DNA of 64,000 nt from an uncultured Mycoplasmatota bacterium (GCA_947574215.1 CANPIX010000001.1:15201-79200); one strand, 5' to 3'; counted from the first letter of the stretch, positions 29,304 to 37,209 are shown. Numbers and translations: made by a program. The notes: generated by a model not told the origin, from the letters alone.

Positions 29304-30587
29304 TTATCTAATTTTTCCCAACGAATCTTCCTCAATAGTATTTAAACGTTTTAAATCTTTTTCTGAGATTTGAATAACTTTTCCGCAACATGGATAAAAA
29401 TTTTTATTTCCATACACAATCCATATTATATTTTCATTTTTTAAATCTTCTTTAGGCATATTTCCAGGCCCAGGAATTCCATCCGTAAATACAATTTTAT
29501 TAATTTCTTTTTTCGCAGTAAAAGATCGTACCGCTAAATCCCAATCTTCTGTCCAAGCAAAATGAGAAGAATTTTCAGGAATTTCAAAATTATCAATATC
29601 TTTTGTTGATTTGATTTCTTTCCATCCCCAAAATTTTTCGTTAAAACATCCTACTTTTAATTTTGAATAGGAAAAAATGTTTTTTACGATTCTTAAGAAT
29701 GCTTTTACCAATTCTAAACTAACAGAGCCTGAAATATCAATCTGAACTTCCGTTTCACATTCTTCTTCTAAATCCGTTTCTTCTAAGCGATACGCATAAT
29801 TATTTTCTGCTATGCTTCTTCGTTGGCTCCAAATAATTTCTTCCTTTTCACTTTCTTTACGGAGCAAAAGTTCCCAATTAATTGTTTTTTCGCTTTCACC
29901 AACATTTCCTATTACCATAGAAGAAGACTTTTCTTCTTTCTTTTTTAAAACTCTTTCTTTCATTTGCTTATAATTTTGTTTGGCTTTTTGAAGTCGTTCT
30001 TGTCTATTTTCTGAAAATTCTTGATTTTCTTTTATTTCTTCAAACTCAAAATTATCTTCTAATTGCTCTTTTGCTTTTACAAACGCATCTTCCCATAAAC
30101 TATGATCACTTCCCGAAAACTCTTTTGCATTTGATTGGGTTTTCTTTTCTTTAATTAAAATCTCATAAAGTTCATCTGCTGAATAATTAAGTGCACCTGG
30201 AATATTCACATATCCTTGTTTTATTTTAAATCCATCTCTTTCTAGATTGGCATTAATAATGGCATCGGTTGCTTCGTTCCATACATCCAAATTTCTTTTT
30301 TTCTTATTATATTCTAAACGAAAAGGATGCCAAAACTTATTGTGCATTAACTCATGTGCTATTAAAAACAATCGATCGTTTTCATTCAATGTTTTCAAAT
30401 AATTTGGATCAATATATATTTTTTTACCATCCGTTGCAGCCGTATGATATTTTAAATGTTCATTAAATTCAAAAGAAGTATTTGCAATGTTACTTCCAAA
30501 ATGAGGATATTTTAAAAGTAATAATTGAATTGTCTCTTCTAATAATTTTTGTTCTTCCTTCATAAGTCTCCTAAAAAGCAACAACAC
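29304..30587 (-). CDS. HExxH putative metallopeptidase-like N-domain + VWA-like C-domain protein (DUF2201-type MoxR partner)
   Basis: HELMHNKFWHP...NEATDAIIN at the N-terminus. The C-terminal domain resembles VWA-like partners of MoxR ATPases. Overlaps the upstream ORF by 17 nt. Confidence 0.5.
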   Translation of the reverse strand: MLLLFRRLMKEEQKLLEETIQLLLLKYPHFGSNIANTSFEFNEHLKYHTAATDGKKIYIDPNYLKTLNENDRLFLIAHELMHNKFWHPFRLEYNKKKRNLDVWNEATDAIINANLERDGFKIKQGYVNIPGALNYSADELYEILIKEKKTQSNAKEFSGSDHSLWEDAFVKAKEQLEDNFEFEEIKENQEFSENRQERLQKAKQNYKQMKERVLKKKEEKSSSMVIGNVGESEKTINWELLLRKESEKEEIIWSQRRSIAENNYAYRLEETDLEEECETEVQIDISGSVSLELVKAFLRIVKNIFSYSKLKVGCFNEKFWGWKEIKSTKDIDNFEIPENSSHFAWTEDWDLAVRSFTAKKEINKIVFTDGIPGPGNMPKEDLKNENIIWIVYGNKNFYPCCGKVIQISEKDLKRLNTIEEDSLGKIR

Positions 30588-30960
30588 TAAAATGATACAA
30601 ATCTTCTGAAATATTTTTTATATTTTCTTGACATTGAATAGTAAAGACAACAATTACATTTTCAGGAAGCGTATAGCCATGAAATTCACGATTTTTTATC
30701 AAATTTATAAAACGATTTTGTTCTTCTTTTTTAATTTGATCTATTAAACGAATAACAAAATATGTGATACTCCCATTACTTGAAACTCGATCCAATTGTT
30801 TTTGAAAAAGAGGTTCACCAAAAGGAGTTCCGATCAAATAAGGATCTTTTATTTTGGCATCCATAAACACCGTTTGACCTAAATCCCTATAAAACTCGTC
30901 TAATATAATAACACAAGTACTATTTACTCCCTTTTGTAATTCAATTAATTCTTTATTCAT
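30571..30960 (-). CDS. hypothetical protein, translationally coupled between the AAA ATPase and the VWA-like protein
   Basis: ORF overlapping both neighbours by 4 nt and 17 nt. Confidence 0.4.
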   Translation of the reverse strand: MNKELIELQKGVNSTCVIILDEFYRDLGQTVFMDAKIKDPYLIGTPFGEPLFQKQLDRVSSNGSITYFVIRLIDQIKKEEQNRFINLIKNREFHGYTLPENVIVVFTIQCQENIKNISEDLYHFSVVAF

Positions 30961-33044
30961 CGGCTAACACCTTCTTTTATTTCTAACGATTCCATATTTT
31001 CTCGTTCTTTTAATTCATAAATAAATTCCATTCTCTTTTCGTCTTTTCCAATCCAACACAAATCGTATAAATCTCGATATTCAGGATCACAATATTCTTT
31101 TATAAATTTCCGACATTCCGCCACTTCCAATTCGTTTGCAAATAAAAGTGCAGAAACCAAAGCGTATCTTTCATTACTATCTCTAGGCAAATCAGTTTGA
31201 GTGTAATTTTTATTAACTACATCTTCCACCGAAAGTGTCATTTGATTGTAATAAGAAAAAAATTCTTCTGCCCAATACTCACGAAGCTTAGTGTGTATTG
31301 AAATTTTTAAAATATCTTCTACATCTTTTCCACTATATTTTCCCGCTTTTAAATTTTTTTCAAAAAGATAAAGTGTATTAGAAATGGAAACCCATCCACG
31401 AGGATCATTGGTTCTTCCTTTGCATCCCCATTTATCTAGTTGCTCTTCTCCTACTTCTGGTTCTTCATAAAAGTAGGAAATATCTTCTATTCTTTCACTT
31501 TTTCCAGTGCTTAAATACTTAGACAAAATATAATGGATAACCTGAGGGTGAACTTTGTTTGGTATAGCGAATTCAAAAAGCCATTCTCCCACCTTCGGCT
31601 CCATATCAAAAATGTGATCAAAACGTTTTTCTAATGGTTCGGCAAGATCTTGTGCAATGTTAGAGTATTTTTTTTGATTACCCGTTGCCACAATAACGAC
31701 ATTTTCTGGAAGTTTTAAACCTCCATTCATTTCTATCAAACGATTCAAAACCAAAGTATAAACAAGTCCTTGTACTGTTGGCTTTACATTTAGTAGTTCA
31801 TCCAATAGAAGAACAATCTTTTTTTCATTTTTTTTACTTCTTTCATACAAAGTATCAGCTAAATCATTTAAATTTTGGATATTTTCTTGAATTAATTTTT
31901 TTTCTTCTTCACTTGCACATCTTAACATAGCTTCTTTGTAAAAATCTGGAGGTATGCTTTGACCCGTTTGTAGATTTATAGATCCAACTACTTTTTCTGG
32001 AAACATATTGTTTGTTAATTTCAGATAAATTAAATCAGGATAAAGTGATTTTATTCTTTCTGTCTTTCCAATTCCAGATGGTCCACGCAAAAGTACAGAT
32101 TGTCCTGATTCAATCCAATTGTGTATAAGCTCTGTATCTGTCATTTTAACTCTTTCTTCTGCTTTGGTTTCATCTGGGTTCATTTTTTGTAATCTCGTTT
32201 TTCTTGGTTCTTTACTTGACTCTATTGTTTTTGCTACTTGGAAGTTTTTTGGAACGTTTACTACTTTAGCAAAATATTGATCCAAAAATTTTTTAATATT
32301 GGTATTATTAAAATCTCCTTTGTAATTTCTTTCTTTATTAAATTGAACACCAGAAAACAAAATAATTTTGGCAAGAGCTATATTTTCTTTTTCAGAAATC
32401 AGCCATTTTATCGGTTCTACTTCTATCCAATAAGGTTTTCCCTCTTTTATGGCTTCTCCATTCGATAAAGTTTGTTCTTTTCCATTAGAATCTCCTATAA
32501 ATCGAATGTATTTTTTATCATTATAAAAATACGTATCAAAAGTACGCAACTTAAAATCCGTATCGTATTTGTCATAAGCTATAGAATCAGCAGGATATTT
32601 TACTTCAGTTTTTAGAAGTTTTCCCCTTTTAAAGTTTTTTTCTAATTCTTTTTCTACGGCTTTAGAAACAACTGTTTGTGGCCATTCAAAGCATTCTACT
32701 TCAACAACTCCGTTTGCCCCTCTCACTTCGTTCGAGGAGATGGATTGGATTACTGAGTAAGGTAAAGCTGGACGACACCCAACTTTCCTATAATGAACAT
32801 TATACCAATGACTATCTCCAATCGAGTCAACCGCGCAGGCATCGTTATCTACAGGTGTTTTGCTCCACCACCAGCCAGTTCGATTTTTTAAATGTTCTTC
32901 TTCATTTGTATAAAAAAAATCTGATACTGCTCCTCCTAATAAAATAGAAAAATCAGATATAGCACACTTTGTCCCATATTTTTTTAGCACTTCTAATTGC
33001 TTTTCTCCAAATATTTGTTCTTCTGTTAAAAATGTAAAATCCAT
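30957..33044 (-). CDS. DGR target protein: N-terminal C-type-lectin-like variable domain fused to a MoxR/AAA_5 ATPase
   Basis: AAA_5 motifs: Walker A LLRGPSGIGKTERI, Walker B LLLDELLNV, and sensor VATGNQ. Residues ~75-100 are encoded by the VR. A WWWSKT...VGCRPAL signature resembles DUF1566/FGE-type CLec targets. Confidence 0.75.
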   Translation of the reverse strand: MDFTFLTEEQIFGEKQLEVLKKYGTKCAISDFSILLGGAVSDFFYTNEEEHLKNRTGWWWSKTPVDNDACAVDSIGDSHWYNVHYRKVGCRPALPYSVIQSISSNEVRGANGVVEVECFEWPQTVVSKAVEKELEKNFKRGKLLKTEVKYPADSIAYDKYDTDFKLRTFDTYFYNDKKYIRFIGDSNGKEQTLSNGEAIKEGKPYWIEVEPIKWLISEKENIALAKIILFSGVQFNKERNYKGDFNNTNIKKFLDQYFAKVVNVPKNFQVAKTIESSKEPRKTRLQKMNPDETKAEERVKMTDTELIHNWIESGQSVLLRGPSGIGKTERIKSLYPDLIYLKLTNNMFPEKVVGSINLQTGQSIPPDFYKEAMLRCASEEEKKLIQENIQNLNDLADTLYERSKKNEKKIVLLLDELLNVKPTVQGLVYTLVLNRLIEMNGGLKLPENVVIVATGNQKKYSNIAQDLAEPLEKRFDHIFDMEPKVGEWLFEFAIPNKVHPQVIHYILSKYLSTGKSERIEDISYFYEEPEVGEEQLDKWGCKGRTNDPRGWVSISNTLYLFEKNLKAGKYSGKDVEDILKISIHTKLREYWAEEFFSYYNQMTLSVEDVVNKNYTQTDLPRDSNERYALVSALLFANELEVAECRKFIKEYCDPEYRDLYDLCWIGKDEKRMEFIYELKERENMESLEIKEGVSR
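32765..32838 (-). repeat. DGR variable repeat (VR) inside the target gene
   Basis: A 74-bp match to 34355-34428. 11 of 12 mismatches occur where the TR coding strand has A. Confidence 0.8.
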
Positions 33045-33119
33045 ATGACACTCACCTTTATTTTAATAATAACACAAATTGTAATTTTTTGGTATTTTCT
33101 TAGTACTTTGACATTTTTT

Positions 33120-34142
33120 TTACATTTTGGGATGTACTTTTTCTATAAACTTCTTACTTTCTTGTGTTTTTTTCACATGGTTATAAAAAGCATTTTTTCT
33201 CTCATAAACATATTTTTCATCGACTATTTTTTTCTCATACAACTTATCGATCGTTTTTAGATGTTTTTTCATTCGCTTTTTAGAAGATTGTCTTAATTTA
33301 ACTATAATTTTTCCGTTTTCTTTTACAATATGACGATATCCTAAAAAATCAATACCATTTTGAACGCAACCAATTTGCGTTTTTTCGTTTAAATTTAAAT
33401 CCAAATTTTTTCTACACATCTCTTCTATTTTTGTTTTACAATCTTTTAAAAACGCTTTCTCACAATGGATCAAAATCATATCATCCATATAACGAATATA
33501 ATGTTTCACTTGTAATCTTTCTTTTATCAAACGATCTATACCATTTAAATAAAATAAAGCAAACCATTGACTTGATTGATTTCCTAATGGTAGACCCTTA
33601 TTTACGTTATTGGGCTGTTCTTGGATCAATTTTTGAATCATCCAAATTTCATCCAAAGAAAAATCTAATTTCTCCAAAAGTTTTAATAAAATTGTGTGAT
33701 TTATACTTGGAAAATATTTTTTTATATCACACTTTAAAAAGTAAAACTGGTTACTTCCTTTTTTTCTATATTCTTTTTTTAAAAACAAATGCAAACGTTG
33801 AATCGCAAAATTGATACCTTTTCCTTTCTGACAAGCAACATTATCGTAAATTAATCTCTTTTCTAATTTTGGTTTTAAAGAATAATCACAAAAACAACGC
33901 ACTACCACTCGATCTTTAAAGGGAAGCGCTTCAATTAATCTTTCTTTTGGTTCATAAATTAAAAATTGTTTGTATTTTCCTAACTTGTATTTTCTGGTTG
34001 TAATTTCTTCTATAATTTTATAAATATTCATAGCCAGATTAATTTCAAACCGAATAACTTCTCCTTTATGTTGCTTCCCTTTTCGACAATGTTTATAGGA
34101 AAGATAAATATTTTCAAAAGTAAATATTTCTTCTAACTTCAT
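33120..34142 (-). CDS. DGR-type reverse transcriptase
   Basis: RT motifs including YMDD (YIRYMDDMILIH) and the DGR-characteristic LPLGNQSSQ. 340 aa. TR lies immediately upstream. Confidence 0.85.
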   Translation of the reverse strand: MKLEEIFTFENIYLSYKHCRKGKQHKGEVIRFEINLAMNIYKIIEEITTRKYKLGKYKQFLIYEPKERLIEALPFKDRVVVRCFCDYSLKPKLEKRLIYDNVACQKGKGINFAIQRLHLFLKKEYRKKGSNQFYFLKCDIKKYFPSINHTILLKLLEKLDFSLDEIWMIQKLIQEQPNNVNKGLPLGNQSSQWFALFYLNGIDRLIKERLQVKHYIRYMDDMILIHCEKAFLKDCKTKIEEMCRKNLDLNLNEKTQIGCVQNGIDFLGYRHIVKENGKIIVKLRQSSKKRMKKHLKTIDKLYEKKIVDEKYVYERKNAFYNHVKKTQESKKFIEKVHPKM

Positions 34143-34354
34143 AAATCTCCTTAAAAAAGAAACACTCTTTTCAATGTTCCAAAAAAATATTTCGTTGGTT
34201 CATCTAGAGTGTTTTTTATTCTTCTATTGCTTATTTAAAAAACGTAGCCAATAGAAAAGAAGAAAATTCCTTCACCTTACAATATTGATTTATTTTTCTT
34301 AAAATAAATTTCTCAAATTTGTTTTTTGGATTTTACAAAATCCCTTCAAAAGTG

Positions 34355-34428
34355 AATCTGGACGAGACCCAACTTTCCTATTATTAACATTATTCCAATT
34401 TCTATTTCCATTTTAGTTAACCGCGCAG
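34355..34428 (-). repeat. DGR template repeat (TR), intergenic between avd-like gene and RT
   Basis: Non-coding copy of the VR. In the VR reading frame it is dominated by AAT/AAC codons: aac, aat, aat, aat, aat, aat, aat, aat. Confidence 0.8.
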
Positions 34429-34476
34429 CAAAACGCCTCAAAAAAGAGGGCCTCACAAAATAAATTTTCTTCTTAA

Positions 34477-35070
34477 TTAAAGGCTTTTCAACCTAAAATC
34501 CTTATTTTTAAATCTTTCATCATCACTTTTTTTCCAAGCACCTATTAAATTGATACTCTTAGCAATTTGTTTTGCTATTTGTTTGTATTGCCGTTTTAAA
34601 ATACATCCAGATGATTCTGCTAACATAGAAATATAGCCAAGTAGTTTCAATTTAATAATGGCATCTTTTTGTAAATTCTCTCTTTGGATTTTGTTTTCTT
34701 TTGAATCCATTCGAATAAAGTTTGCTTCTAACAAAAGTTCTAAAGTATCTAAACAATAATTTTGCATGCGGTTTACAAAAACCCCACGAAACTTTTTAGG
34801 AGATTTTTCGGTGACTACCAAAACATACGCGCCTAATTTTTTAATCTGAGTAATCACAATTAAATCGTTGGCATTAAATGGAATTTTTTCTATTTGTTTT
34901 AATTCCTCGTCAGCTAAAATAAATTCTTCTTTTTCTTTATATTTTTCATTATTTGCCTTACATATTTCCTTTTTTACTGCCAATATATCTTCTTTTGTAT
35001 TCAAATTTTCTTCCATATCCAAAACAATTTTAGGAATTTTTAAATTGTTTGCTCTACTAACTTGCAACAC
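34477..35070 (-). CDS. avd: Avd-like accessory variability determinant (four-helix-bundle family), with N-terminal extension or internal start
   Basis: The C-terminal ~130 aa resemble the Avd/four-helix-bundle family: SPKKFRGVFVNRMQNY ~ PKEE+YGLTSQ+RRAA, and LKLLGYIS...QIAKSINLIGAWKKS ~ AKDLGYI...ISKMLNGLIKSL. Basic. Ends 49 nt before TR. Confidence 0.55.
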   Translation of the reverse strand: MLQVSRANNLKIPKIVLDMEENLNTKEDILAVKKEICKANNEKYKEKEEFILADEELKQIEKIPFNANDLIVITQIKKLGAYVLVVTEKSPKKFRGVFVNRMQNYCLDTLELLLEANFIRMDSKENKIQRENLQKDAIIKLKLLGYISMLAESSGCILKRQYKQIAKQIAKSINLIGAWKKSDDERFKNKDFRLKSL

Positions 35071-35661: not shown

Positions 35662-37209
35662 TTATTCTTTTGGCAAAGTTAGTAAATAATAAGTCTCGTA
35701 TTTTTTAGCATTTTTTATTATCAATTTTTCTCCATTGTATGCATACAATTTGTTTTTATATACTTTTAAATGATCAAATTTATAGGCAAGAATGCTTTTA
35801 TGATTTTTGGCATTTCGATCTCTAGTACCATCATAATATACCATATATTTTCCACTACTCAAATATTCTAAATCTGTAATTAAAACATCGCCTTCTTTGG
35901 TAGATGTAACAATTCTTAAAGTATTTGGAATTTTAGCGCTTACATTTTTCATAAAATCGTCGTATGCTTTTTTATTAATTACTTTGTCTTTTTCTATTAC
36001 ATAATTGCCGTCTTTTTTCGCATCTTGAATAGAAAAATCATCTGAAAGCAATTCTAATTTTTTAAATTTTGTATCAATATCACAAGAGTTTCCAATACCG
36101 TATGTTATCGAAATTTGATTTAAAAACAATCCTTTTTTTATGCTATGTTCTGTAATCGTATAATTTTCTTTTGAATTGTAATAATAATTTTTTCCATCAC
36201 AATTTAAAAGTTCATAATGGCTTATTATTTCATCCATTTCTTTTTTTAAAGCTTTTACACTTCTTGGGGTGCTAAATGTTGCATTGTAATTACAGCATTC
36301 TTCTTTTAATTTTACAAATTTAGGTATATCTAAAATTTTGTTAGAAGCTTCGGATTTATAAGTGCTTATCCCATACGGAAGCTTTAATAAAATAGAACTT
36401 ATCAGACAAAAAATTGCAATGAATAAAAGGATTTTTCTTGTTTTTTTGAAATTCTTTTTTTGTTCCGAAAGATTTTCTTGCAATTTTTTTTCTTGTGTTT
36501 TTTCTTTTTTATCAGAAGAAATATTTTTTTTCTCTAACTTTTTAACTGGGTCTTTTTTTATTTTGGATTGTAAAAAATTTTTAAAATGCAATGCATTTGT
36601 TTTTATACTTTTCCCTATAAATTTTGTAATTTGTTTGGTTTGTTTTCCTATATTTTTTTTATATTTTTTGAAATGAATCCCTAATTTTTTAGAACGGATT
36701 TTTATAGTTTTAACAAAATCTTTACTTATTTTTTTTACTTGTTTTTGAAGCGTTGACCAAATTCTTTTCCCAATCTTTTCTTTTGAAATTTTATTAGAAG
36801 AAACTGCTTTTCCTACTTTTTTTTGAGTGGATACAATTTTTTTAATCGGTTTTACTTCTTTTTTTTCCACTTTCTTTTCTTTATTTGGTGTTCCTTTTTT
36901 AGAAGAGAGTTCCTTTTTATTTGTTGATTTTGTAGAGGATTTTTTTTCGCTTAAATTTATTTTGTTTGAAGTTGTTTTTTTGGTTGTTTTAGAAGACGTT
37001 CCTTTTTTTGGAGTAGAAGGTTTTGCCTTTGTAGTAGTACTTTTACCTGTAGAAGGATTTGTCTTTTTTACTGTTGTTGACTTCTTTTTCGGTGCTGAAG
37101 ATGGCTTTGCAGTTGTTATTGAATTTGCTTTTTTAGTGGAACTCGTTGTTGTCTTCTTTACATTTTTAGAAGTGGTTTTTGTTTTGCTTTCCGTTTTCTT
37201 TTCTGCCAT
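35662..37209 (-). CDS. membrane protein with ~260-aa Lys/Ser/Thr-rich basic N-terminal tail, single TM and ~230-aa C-terminal extracytoplasmic domain
   Basis: Extreme K/T/S low-complexity region, then TM helix ILLFIAIFCLISSILL, then a globular C-domain. Confidence 0.5.
   Translation of the reverse strand: MAEKKTESKTKTTSKNVKKTTTSSTKKANSITTAKPSSAPKKKSTTVKKTNPSTGKSTTTKAKPSTPKKGTSSKTTKKTTSNKINLSEKKSSTKSTNKKELSSKKGTPNKEKKVEKKEVKPIKKIVSTQKKVGKAVSSNKISKEKIGKRIWSTLQKQVKKISKDFVKTIKIRSKKLGIHFKKYKKNIGKQTKQITKFIGKSIKTNALHFKNFLQSKIKKDPVKKLEKKNISSDKKEKTQEKKLQENLSEQKKNFKKTRKILLFIAIFCLISSILLKLPYGISTYKSEASNKILDIPKFVKLKEECCNYNATFSTPRSVKALKKEMDEIISHYELLNCDGKNYYYNSKENYTITEHSIKKGLFLNQISITYGIGNSCDIDTKFKKLELLSDDFSIQDAKKDGNYVIEKDKVINKKAYDDFMKNVSAKIPNTLRIVTSTKEGDVLITDLEYLSSGKYMVYYDGTRDRNAKNHKSILAYKFDHLKVYKNKLYAYNGEKLIIKNAKKYETYYLLTLPKE

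Follow-up and report, generated by a model that had tools for sequence, protein, structure and literature searches.

The ternary VMAP systems of cyanobacteria and gammaproteobacteria, in which a diversity-generating retroelement (DGR) accompanies MoxR and vWA components, are among the closest described counterparts of the gene cassette analysed here. The cassette lies at 29304-35070 on the minus strand of a 64,000-nucleotide stretch of DNA from an uncultured Mycoplasmatota bacterium (GCA_947574215.1, CANPIX010000001.1:15201-79200), the whole of which is called the window below. Calling of open reading frames (ORFs), a repeat search and a Pfam scan of the window recognised six co-oriented elements in it: an Avd-like gene, a template repeat (TR), a DGR reverse transcriptase (RT), the target gene of the DGR, a small gene (orf129) and the gene of a zincin-VWA partner protein. 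The target is an AAA+ ATPase with a variable head module at its N terminus. In the VMAP systems as in the cassette, a DGR diversifies a domain of the C-type-lectin-like (CLec) fold (PMC7159879; PMC10907252). This domain is part of a set of cytoplasmic NTPase/vWA genes that includes a peptidase, and it is proposed to sense invaders. However, the variable CLec domain of the VMAP systems is of the FGE type and C-terminal on the vWA component, always following other domains (PMC7159879), whereas the cassette has an N-terminal head of the DUF6273 type on the ATPase itself. Pfam scans accordingly place the variable domain at the ATPase N terminus and find no CLec domain in the vWA protein of the cassette. 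The MoxR ATPase of the VMAP systems is a separate protein and a large VMAP protein is the third component, whereas the third gene of the cassette encodes only 129 residues. The vWA protein of the cassette differs further by its zincin domain (DUF2201_N), and the hosts are gut Bacilli and Clostridia rather than multicellular bacteria.

The CLec-AAA targets from Candidate Phyla Radiation (CPR) bacteria (Paul et al. 2017, cited in PMC10907252; UVR4 'Midasin'/AAA, Wu et al. 2018, PMC5758913), resemble the target in the fusion of a DGR variable domain to an AAA-type ATPase and in the proposal that the ATPase transduces a signal. In this comparison, which is one of descriptions, the CPR proteins differ by a variable repeat (VR) at the C-terminal end and by a separate RT clade, and no DUF2201 partner is reported for them. 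The gut-phage DGR targets with DUF6273, tentaclins and Mtd-like proteins (Baykov et al. 2023, PMC10743442; bioRxiv 2024.10.15.618418), share with the target a CLec head of the DUF6273 type in which the VR forms a beta-hairpin. However, tentaclins carry Ig-like domains and belong to the virion or are extracellular, whereas the target is a cytoplasmic ATPase encoded on a bacterial chromosome. Compared with Treponema denticola TvpA (PDB 2Y3C) and the C-terminal domain of Legionella Lcl (8Q4E), the head has no FGE-sulfatase or DUF1566 family match and, unlike both, is a minimal lobe within a module of 262 residues.

An earlier note on the window, made from its sequence without database searches, had called the combination undescribed. 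This is plausible for the exact combination: no description of a head on the ATPase together with a DUF2201 zincin-VWA partner and a small AAA-like ORF was found in the literature and annotation searched, including the supplements of Roux et al. 2021. Nor did these sources describe its abundance in gut Bacilli and Clostridia or its kinship with the gp24/gp25-like gene pair of phages. However, each ingredient has a close precedent, in DGR-linked MoxR/vWA genes, in the CPR CLec-AAA fusions, in the N-terminal DUF6273 heads of tentaclins and in the rare N-terminal VRs, of which three DGRs are given in PMC5758913. The reading preferred here, to which an even chance is assigned, is that the DGR-diversified head on an AAA+ ring senses an intracellular ligand and is coupled to the zincin-VWA partner, forming an anticipatory recognition machine.

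An active retroelement rewrites the N terminus of the target

The target gene (30957-33044, minus strand) is a continuous ORF of 695 codons, as the earlier note had read it. The TR (34355-34428, 74 nt, minus strand), a non-coding element between the Avd-like gene and the RT gene, aligns without gaps to the VR within the target gene (32765-32838, minus strand), which encodes residues C70-P95. The earlier note had put the VR at residues ~75-100 of a protein that is mostly AAA+ ATPase; the position near the N terminus is right in substance, and the boundaries are about five residues off. Over the first 62 nt, all 10 mismatches of the pair fall on TR adenines. As the TR holds 25 A in those 62 nt, the chance of all 10 mismatches falling on A is ~1e-4. 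The TR contains eight AAY codons in the VR frame, and its translation in that frame, CAVN*NGNRNWNNVNNRKVGSRPD, shows an in-frame TAA. The codons with TR adenines correspond to residues 73-75, 77-79, 81-82 and 84-87 of the target, which in the window are D73, S74, I75, D77, S78, H79, Y81, N82, H84, Y85, R86 and K87. N82, R86 and K87 are identical to the TR, and residues 73, 74, 75, 77, 78, 79, 81, 84 and 85 differ from it.

Natural variation provides the strongest evidence for the activity of the DGR. A second, metagenomic copy of the protein (P0241), a database entry from a different contig, shares 686 of 695 residues with the window protein; the nine differences are all inside the VR (residues 74, 75, 78, 79, 81, 82, 84, 85 and 90). 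Likewise, a single 90%-identity cluster has members with three different versions of the VR. Comparable TR/VR pairs were recovered from 16 related loci; at most one mismatch (0 or 1) is off the TR adenines in 15 of these, while the remaining one (L005) has two; in L004 all 17 mismatches are on adenines. Thus, the DGR of the window is real, active and chromosomal.

Beyond the first 62 nt, the repeats show one C-to-G difference and then a boundary at which the TR reads CCAGATT and the VR CCAGCTT. This boundary recurs in nearly every related locus whose aligned pair reaches so far, in L052 as CCCGATT/CCCGCTT. Such non-adenine differences at the 3' end are typical of initiation of mutagenic homing (IMH) versus IMH* sites. 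A search for a DNA hairpin after the VR gave none beyond chance (z -0.12). The C-to-G change, the sole non-adenine difference in the transferred region, is in codon 90 (32775-32777), which is TGT (Cys) in the VR and TCT (Ser) in the TR. Since P0241 has Ser90 like the TR, Cys90 of the window represents the sole change off the adenines; it arose either by a point mutation that followed homing or through a rare error of the RT at a base other than adenine.

The RT (33120-34142, minus strand, 340 aa) matches Pfam RVT_1 (E 1.1e-18) and the PADLOC RT model (E 1e-32). Its motif LGNQSSQ occupies residues 185-192, and YMDD lies at residue 218; the SQ dipeptide, here at residue 191, is a hallmark of DGR RTs (PMC3521204). 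The Avd-like accessory protein (34477-35070, minus strand, 197 aa) consists of an N-terminal extension of ~69 residues and an Avd-like part at residues 70-182. Its matches to NCBIfam DivGenRetAVD (E 8.6e-8, 32 bits, cut-off 80 bits) and Pfam bAvd (E 1e-4, 23 bits, gathering threshold 40) are below the respective thresholds. Homologs of the Avd-like gene sit 5' of the RT in ~24 related loci, and the position upstream of the TR and the RT is conserved.

The variable head is a lobe of a larger module

The head module comprises residues 1-262 of the target (32259-33044, minus strand). Motif and VR conservation were followed in an alignment of 34 homologs at ~60% identity, in which the TR-adenine positions of the block V-xxx-G-xxxxxx-V-xx-R-x-G-x-[AC]-RPALP are exactly the hypervariable ones, and its surroundings are conserved. 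Structure prediction of residues 1-280 from 24 sequences gave a single compact unit of 262 residues (predicted local distance difference test (pLDDT) 87.8, predicted template modelling score (pTM) 0.88). In the model, a CLec-like lobe (residues ~1-100) packs on a beta-rich lobe, and the VR forms a beta-hairpin (E68-72/E78-82) followed by E93-95. The model thus gives the head a CLec-like fold and exposes the VR hairpin, a point that the earlier note had proposed to examine by structure prediction. A Foldseek search with the head module gave no match.

The window protein matches Pfam DUF6273 (PF19789) weakly, with 14.3 bits (E 0.037, threshold 23.5) and over model positions 109-168 only, and a 65% identical ortholog (P0003) scores 26.9 bits, above the threshold. 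DUF6273 has been assigned independently in two papers to the CLec fold with the VR on a hairpin (PMC10743442; bioRxiv 2024.10.15.618418), and it forms an N-terminal head in the phage 'tentaclins' (PMC10743442). On account of the weak match, the ortholog above threshold and the two papers on the fold, the head is CLec-like and probably of the DUF6273 type rather than the DUF1566/FGE type. The earlier note had seen a tiny N-terminal CLec-like domain with a DUF1566/FGE signature, to be checked by profile searches. Its CLec-like character stands; the family does not, as no Pfam match to DUF1566 or FGE-sulfatase was found at E up to 10 in residues 1-119, 97-303 or 1-277. The size does not stand either: in the model the CLec-like part is one lobe of the 262-residue module and not an isolated domain.

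The module behaves as an evolutionary unit. It is tandemly duplicated in a database homolog (P0002), and its profile matched 2,874 cluster representatives (50% identity), of which 986 have E <1e-30. Elsewhere, the head module is joined to DUF4116 or ankyrin repeats without an ATPase (P0264, P0271 and others), and it also occurs in many proteins of 260-450 aa. In tandem-module proteins, DUF6273 model positions 5-170 align across the junction of the two modules (P0264 residues 214-375; P0271 residues 500-626), whereas in single-module proteins only the last third of the model aligns, at the very N terminus. The module (window residues 1-100 and ~200-262) may be a circular permutant of the canonical DUF6273. 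A permuted order, with residues 196-265 placed before residues 1-100, was rescanned against Pfam and raised the score of the window protein by 3.5 bits only and that of P0003 by 0, which gives permutation no support.

The ATPase and its coupled partner genes

The AAA+ core of the target (residues ~305-480; 31605-32132, minus strand) carries a Walker A motif (GPSGIGKT), a Walker B motif (LLLDE), sensor 1 (VATGN) and the motif EKRFD. Residues 317-475 match AAA_5 (PF07728) with 26.7 bits (E 6e-6, gathering threshold 22), and the Pfam AAA match (E 4e-5) is also above its gathering threshold. Most homologs have a precomputed PF07728 assignment. AAA_5 is also the type of midasin. The segments GPSGIGKT, LLLDELLNVKP, VATGNQ and PLEKRFDH are invariant in the 34 orthologs; with all four motifs kept, the protein is probably an active ATPase. 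The AAA_5 family and its motifs, as given in the earlier note, thus hold. The name MoxR, which the note had attached to them, is not established. Pfam scans found neither AAA_3 nor CbbQ_C in the target, a family profile of the full-length target found nothing among PDB sequences, and the AAA region alone as a profile gave weak similarities of the Cdc48/ClpA type and nothing else. A Foldseek search with the full-length AlphaFold2 model returned generic AAA+ proteins (NSF, PCH-2, p97, RFC, ClpA and dynein) at E >=3e-3, none of them significant. Assignment to MoxR was therefore rejected as unproven, as neither sequence nor fold searches matched a solved MoxR protein and the model of the core is poor. 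The results support the description of an AAA_5 ATPase that has a VWA partner and a MoxR-like organisation. The C-terminal region (residues 548-682; 30999-31403, minus strand) is predicted to be all-helical (pLDDT ~70-86) and has no Pfam match.

The target gene is translationally coupled to orf129 and the partner gene, as had been noted earlier. The stop codon of the target and the start codon of orf129 (30571-30960, minus strand, 129 aa) share an ATGA overlap. The distance from the orf129 stop to the ATG of the partner gene is 7 nt, with an AGGAG spanning the orf129 stop codon. The partner ORF is 427 codons long; the ATG at 30563, which is preceded by a ribosome-binding site, gives a protein of 419 aa (29304-30563, minus strand), the same as a database protein (P0121).

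Orf129 is a small conserved protein with homologs in 59 ORFs of related loci and no match in Pfam, NCBIfam or PADLOC. It is locally similar to the AAA core of the target itself, over a stretch that begins directly behind Walker B and runs past sensor 1 (BLASTP E 7e-4; hhalign E 5e-4 over 45 columns), and has no P-loop. It may thus be a degenerate, P-loop-less AAA fragment. In loci of the Clostridia type, an extra gene of ~155 aa without a family match lies between the target gene and orf129 (26 loci; for example L006 4721-5197 and L076 12216-12683); it is absent from the window.

The N-terminal part of the partner matches DUF2201_N (E 4.6e-20), and a profile of the partner matches the minigluzincin MJ1213 (4qhi, E 5e-5). 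Across 38 orthologs, the two histidines of the HExxH motif (H70 and H74) never vary, and its glutamate (E71) is present in >=90%. In the C-terminal half, the pattern of the metal-ion-dependent adhesion site (MIDAS), D276-x-S278-G-S280...T338...D361, is invariant in the same set. This half of the window partner itself has no Pfam match; PF09967, the DUF2201 VWA-like domain, is matched in 19 of the 38 orthologs (best E 1.1e-4). The HExxH N terminus and VWA-like C terminus described in the earlier note are correct, and the partner is probably an active zincin-VWA protein.

An AAA+ ATPase gene beside a VWA/MIDAS gene is also found in RavA-ViaA, NorQ-NorD and CbbQ-CbbO. By analogy with these, the cassette could be a dedicated chaperone or maturation factor that remodels or metallates a client, with the head only tuning client binding. 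The pairing of an AAA_5 ATPase with a VWA/MIDAS partner fits such a role. MoxR-VWA pairs act as maturation factors (PMC9976466, PMC13036017, PMC3893208), and the PGAP annotation calls a distant plasmid homolog of the target 'MoxR family ATPase'. However, a fixed client would need neither ~10 randomised contact residues nor sample-specific alleles, and no gene of a client enzyme is conserved beside the operon. The cassette shows no sequence or fold match to these pairs and no similarity to solved MoxR proteins, its ATPase bears a hypervariable head, and its partner has a conserved peptidase motif that is not known from those chaperone partners. A chaperone role is decidedly improbable, and ligand sensing by the variable head remains the preferred reading.

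The cassette is widespread in gut bacteria

A word-indexed protein search with the target found 1,096 clusters at E <=1e-3; the best 120 of these are all full length and 56-65% identical to it (P0001, the window's own sequence, excepted). A scan of one genome per species yielded 75 loci, all in gut or rumen metagenome-assembled genomes (MAGs) labelled Bacilli, 'Tenericutes', Clostridia, Christensenella and similar. One of these loci, from an 'uncultured Tenericutes bacterium', is 97% identical. The zincin-VWA gene is present in 56 of the 60 loci with enough downstream sequence, so the operon is conserved in relatives, where the earlier note had proposed to look. Two or three full-length target paralogs occur in 13 loci (three copies in L023; a further example at L076 10001-15313). 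In L006, L009, L011 and L012, the VRs of both paralogs match a single TR with different adenine substitutions.

A head-less engine in phages and plasmids

Comparison with phages and plasmids showed that the ATPase part of the target has distant homologs there. The similarity extends over residues ~290-645, thus including much of the C-terminal region, with 22-26% identity and E down to 1e-12 in 193 phage records, among them N4-like Schitoviridae, rV5-like Vequintavirinae, jumbo phages and Thermus phage YS40. Homologs of the ATPase are also present in 26 plasmids, and homologs of the partner in 282 phage records. The zincin-VWA partner is likewise homologous to that of the cassette, and its gene lies immediately downstream of the ATPase gene, whose core and C-terminal region are homologous. 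In both phages inspected, one rV5-like and one N4-like, a gene with DUF2201_N and DUF2201 is directly 3' of the ATPase gene (Cronobacter phage CR9, L078 4803-6356; Erwinia phage phiEaP-8, L079 4505-5638; E down to 1.7e-46). In both plasmids inspected, one mycobacterial and one from Burkholderia, the ATPase is followed by a 'VWA-like domain-containing protein'; the 'MoxR family ATPase' of PGAP is the mycobacterial one. In contrast to the cassette, these phage and plasmid pairs lack a variable head and a DGR, and mostly orf129 as well. No tblastn match to the head module was found among 50,697 GenBank phage records. The bacterial system is thus best described, from these sequence comparisons, as a widespread ATPase/zincin-VWA engine to which a DGR-diversified head has been added.

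The partner genes of phages are often annotated as 'HNH endonuclease' (in CR9 and phiEaP-8, and also in H35, H37 and H41). This label is probably a propagated annotation error that affects a core gene pair of N4-like phages. In phage N4, gp24 (of unknown function) and gp25 (vWFA) are middle genes and belong to the 14 core genes of N4-like phages (PMC4193335); they are probably the ATPase/zincin-VWA pair. On the conjugative Burkholderia vietnamiensis plasmid pMSMB608 (L081 3758-7058), a head-less ATPase gene, a hypothetical gene of 308 aa and the VWA-like gene form a trio directly upstream of genes of a type IV secretion system (VirB11-like ATPase and TrbC/VirB2). This context hints that the engine may act during DNA transfer or establishment.

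The distribution raises the question of whether the engine serves mobile elements, as a phage and plasmid tool used, for example, in taking over the host, in countering its defences or in establishing after DNA entry. In that case the chromosomal copy would be domesticated or resident, and its DGR head would bind proteins of the host or of competitors and not those of invaders. The many phage homologs of both genes, their adjacency in the two phages inspected, the core status of gp24 and gp25, and the plasmid copies, one beside secretion genes, all speak for this possibility. Recombinase genes also flank the cassette in 12 related loci, as large serine recombinases in seven and integrase-like genes in five; none is present in the window. 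However, the window cassette sits between housekeeping genes, and L052, with 66% protein identity, has the same Hsp20...glycosidase (NAGPA) flanks, which favours stable chromosomal inheritance in the window lineage. Moreover, no phage record gave a match to the head module and the phage versions have no DGR. An offensive or mobile-element function of the cassette is unlikely on balance, and intracellular sensing for the host is preferred.

Stop codons in the template

The in-frame TAA of the window TR corresponds to the codon of Ser74 (TCG) in the VR. Of the 19 TRs recovered, 9 have an in-frame stop made with adenines, and these stops fall at three separate codons: TAA at the Ser74 codon (window, L001, L052), TAA at the Trp80 position (L002, L005, L018), TGA at the Trp80 position (L022, L072) and TAA elsewhere (L035). 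The counts in relatives assume the standard genetic code, which was established for the window only, where TGA ends 8 of 37 long ORFs and Trp is encoded by TGG. In six of the nine loci, the assembled VR still has TAA, TAG or TGA, and the target is split into pieces of ~75-86 aa and ~590 aa. The window, L001 and L072 are in the 'ON' state (Ser, Trp, Cys). As 3 of the 16 TNN outcomes of TAA are stops, retrohoming should regularly make null alleles and revert them, which suggests DGR-driven ON/OFF switching of the target. No description of a stop-bearing TR was found in the literature searched.

Switching between stop and sense codons of a costly ATPase might even be the main output of the retroelement, with diversification of the ligand as a by-product. 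The stops in nearly half of the TRs and the interrupted targets are what such phase variation would produce. However, 10 of the 19 TRs have no stop codon. The AAY-rich TR and the scaffold V-xxx-G-x6-V-xx-R have the design of a ligand-binding DGR target, and a mere switch would not need eight AAY codons. Phase variation as the main purpose is improbable, and switching is here considered an addition to ligand recognition.

The split targets also bear on the location and integrity of the protein. Most cellular DGR targets are membrane-anchored or secreted (PMC8144416), which would suit an adhesin-type target at the surface or outside the cell, and the first 75-86 codons form an ORF of their own in six relatives, as they would if the VR segment were a separate small gene obscured by an assembly error. 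However, no signal-peptide-like or transmembrane stretch was found, as no 19-residue window of any cassette protein scores above 1.35 on the Kyte-Doolittle scale. Since no cassette protein has a hydrophobic stretch fitting a signal peptide or membrane span, the whole machine is taken to be cytoplasmic. The head is also covalently joined to the ATP-dependent domain across the homolog clusters, the best 120 of which are full length. Stop codons carried over from the TR, and not frameshifts, account for the split ORFs, and the ORF of the window is continuous, so that the frameshift considered in the earlier note does not apply. A surface adhesin or a separate VR gene is highly improbable, and the cytoplasmic sensor remains the preferred reading.

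A proposed anticipatory sensor

In the DGR, the 74-nt TR is copied by the RT with errors at adenines and the resulting complementary DNA (cDNA) takes the place of the VR, so that ~10-12 codons of the beta-hairpin in the CLec-like head are rewritten. In the proposed mechanism, the ATPase would form a ring displaying several variable heads, and the head would capture an intracellular ligand that varies and most likely comes from a phage or another mobile element as one of its proteins. Binding would be coupled, via ATP-driven remodelling and a VWA/MIDAS contact, to the metallopeptidase domain of the partner, which would cleave the captured ligand or be itself activated as an effector. A cDNA that leaves the TR stop codon as TAA, TAG or TGA would give a null allele, so that ON/OFF switching of the sensor would be a further effect of the retroelement. 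For CLec sensors diversified by DGRs, joint action with MoxR/vWA components has been proposed (PMC7159879; PMC10907252); the mechanism given here has the same logic and a different wiring. A more specific version is possible yet doubtful: gut Bacilli and Clostridia would have an abundant cytoplasmic anticipatory immunity, in which a DGR-written lectin-like head on an AAA+ ring, with a zincin-VWA partner borrowed from phages or plasmids, captures invader proteins and destroys them or signals their presence, and in which the TR stop is a stochastic ON/OFF switch limiting cost or self-reactivity.

A function in defence or surveillance, as the earlier note had suggested, is an inference, and several observations weigh against it. 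No known defence system was recognised at the window: PADLOC gave a partial DolB AAA match and generic RT families, and an NCBIfam scan gave nothing specific. The neighbours in the window are housekeeping genes and form no defence island. An RT homolog is adjacent to the cassette in only 24 of the 50 loci with >=3 kb of upstream sequence. The head-less pair is found mainly in phages and plasmids, and any role in conflict could therefore run in either direction; as a core gene pair of virulent phages that is also carried on plasmids, the engine is not intrinsically a host-defence device. Furthermore, the full-length AlphaFold2 model has an overall pLDDT of 68.8 with 33-70 in the AAA+ core, which is low confidence, and the stops in MAG consensus sequences could partly reflect mixed populations.

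Cellular DGR targets are mostly seen as surface binders, whereas the target described here is abundant and intracellular, its head being attached to an engine that consumes energy and has a protease-like partner. Should it sense invaders, the concept of a receptor repertoire made in advance would extend, with other wiring, from multicellular cyanobacteria and purple sulfur bacteria to gut Firmicutes. The cassette also offers a first functional lead on the ATPase/vWFA pair of N4-like, rV5-like and jumbo phages, and the in-frame TR stops suggest that DGRs can double as ON/OFF switches. The compact head (~100 aa, or the module of 262 aa), with ~10 randomised positions, is a candidate scaffold for DGR-based evolution of binders.

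Genetic surroundings of the cassette

The base composition across the window is uniform, at ~27-30% G+C. On one side, the cassette is flanked by ordinary chromosomal genes encoding a PP-loop ATPase, NrdG, NrdD, a Crp-type regulator and a phosphodiester glycosidase, and on the other side by those of Hsp20, GltX, a cyclophilin and a DNA-alkylation repair protein. Genes of ToxN/AbiQ-like toxins, absent from the window, lie beside the cassette in three loci (L076 17037-17447; L011 and L038); together with the serine recombinase and integrase-like genes of other loci, they are a contextual hint in favour of the proposed sensor. Beside the Hsp20 gene of the window, an ORF of 515 aa (35662-37209, minus strand) has no Pfam match at E <=1e-5, and its N-terminal half is a long low-complexity region rich in Lys, Ser and Thr.

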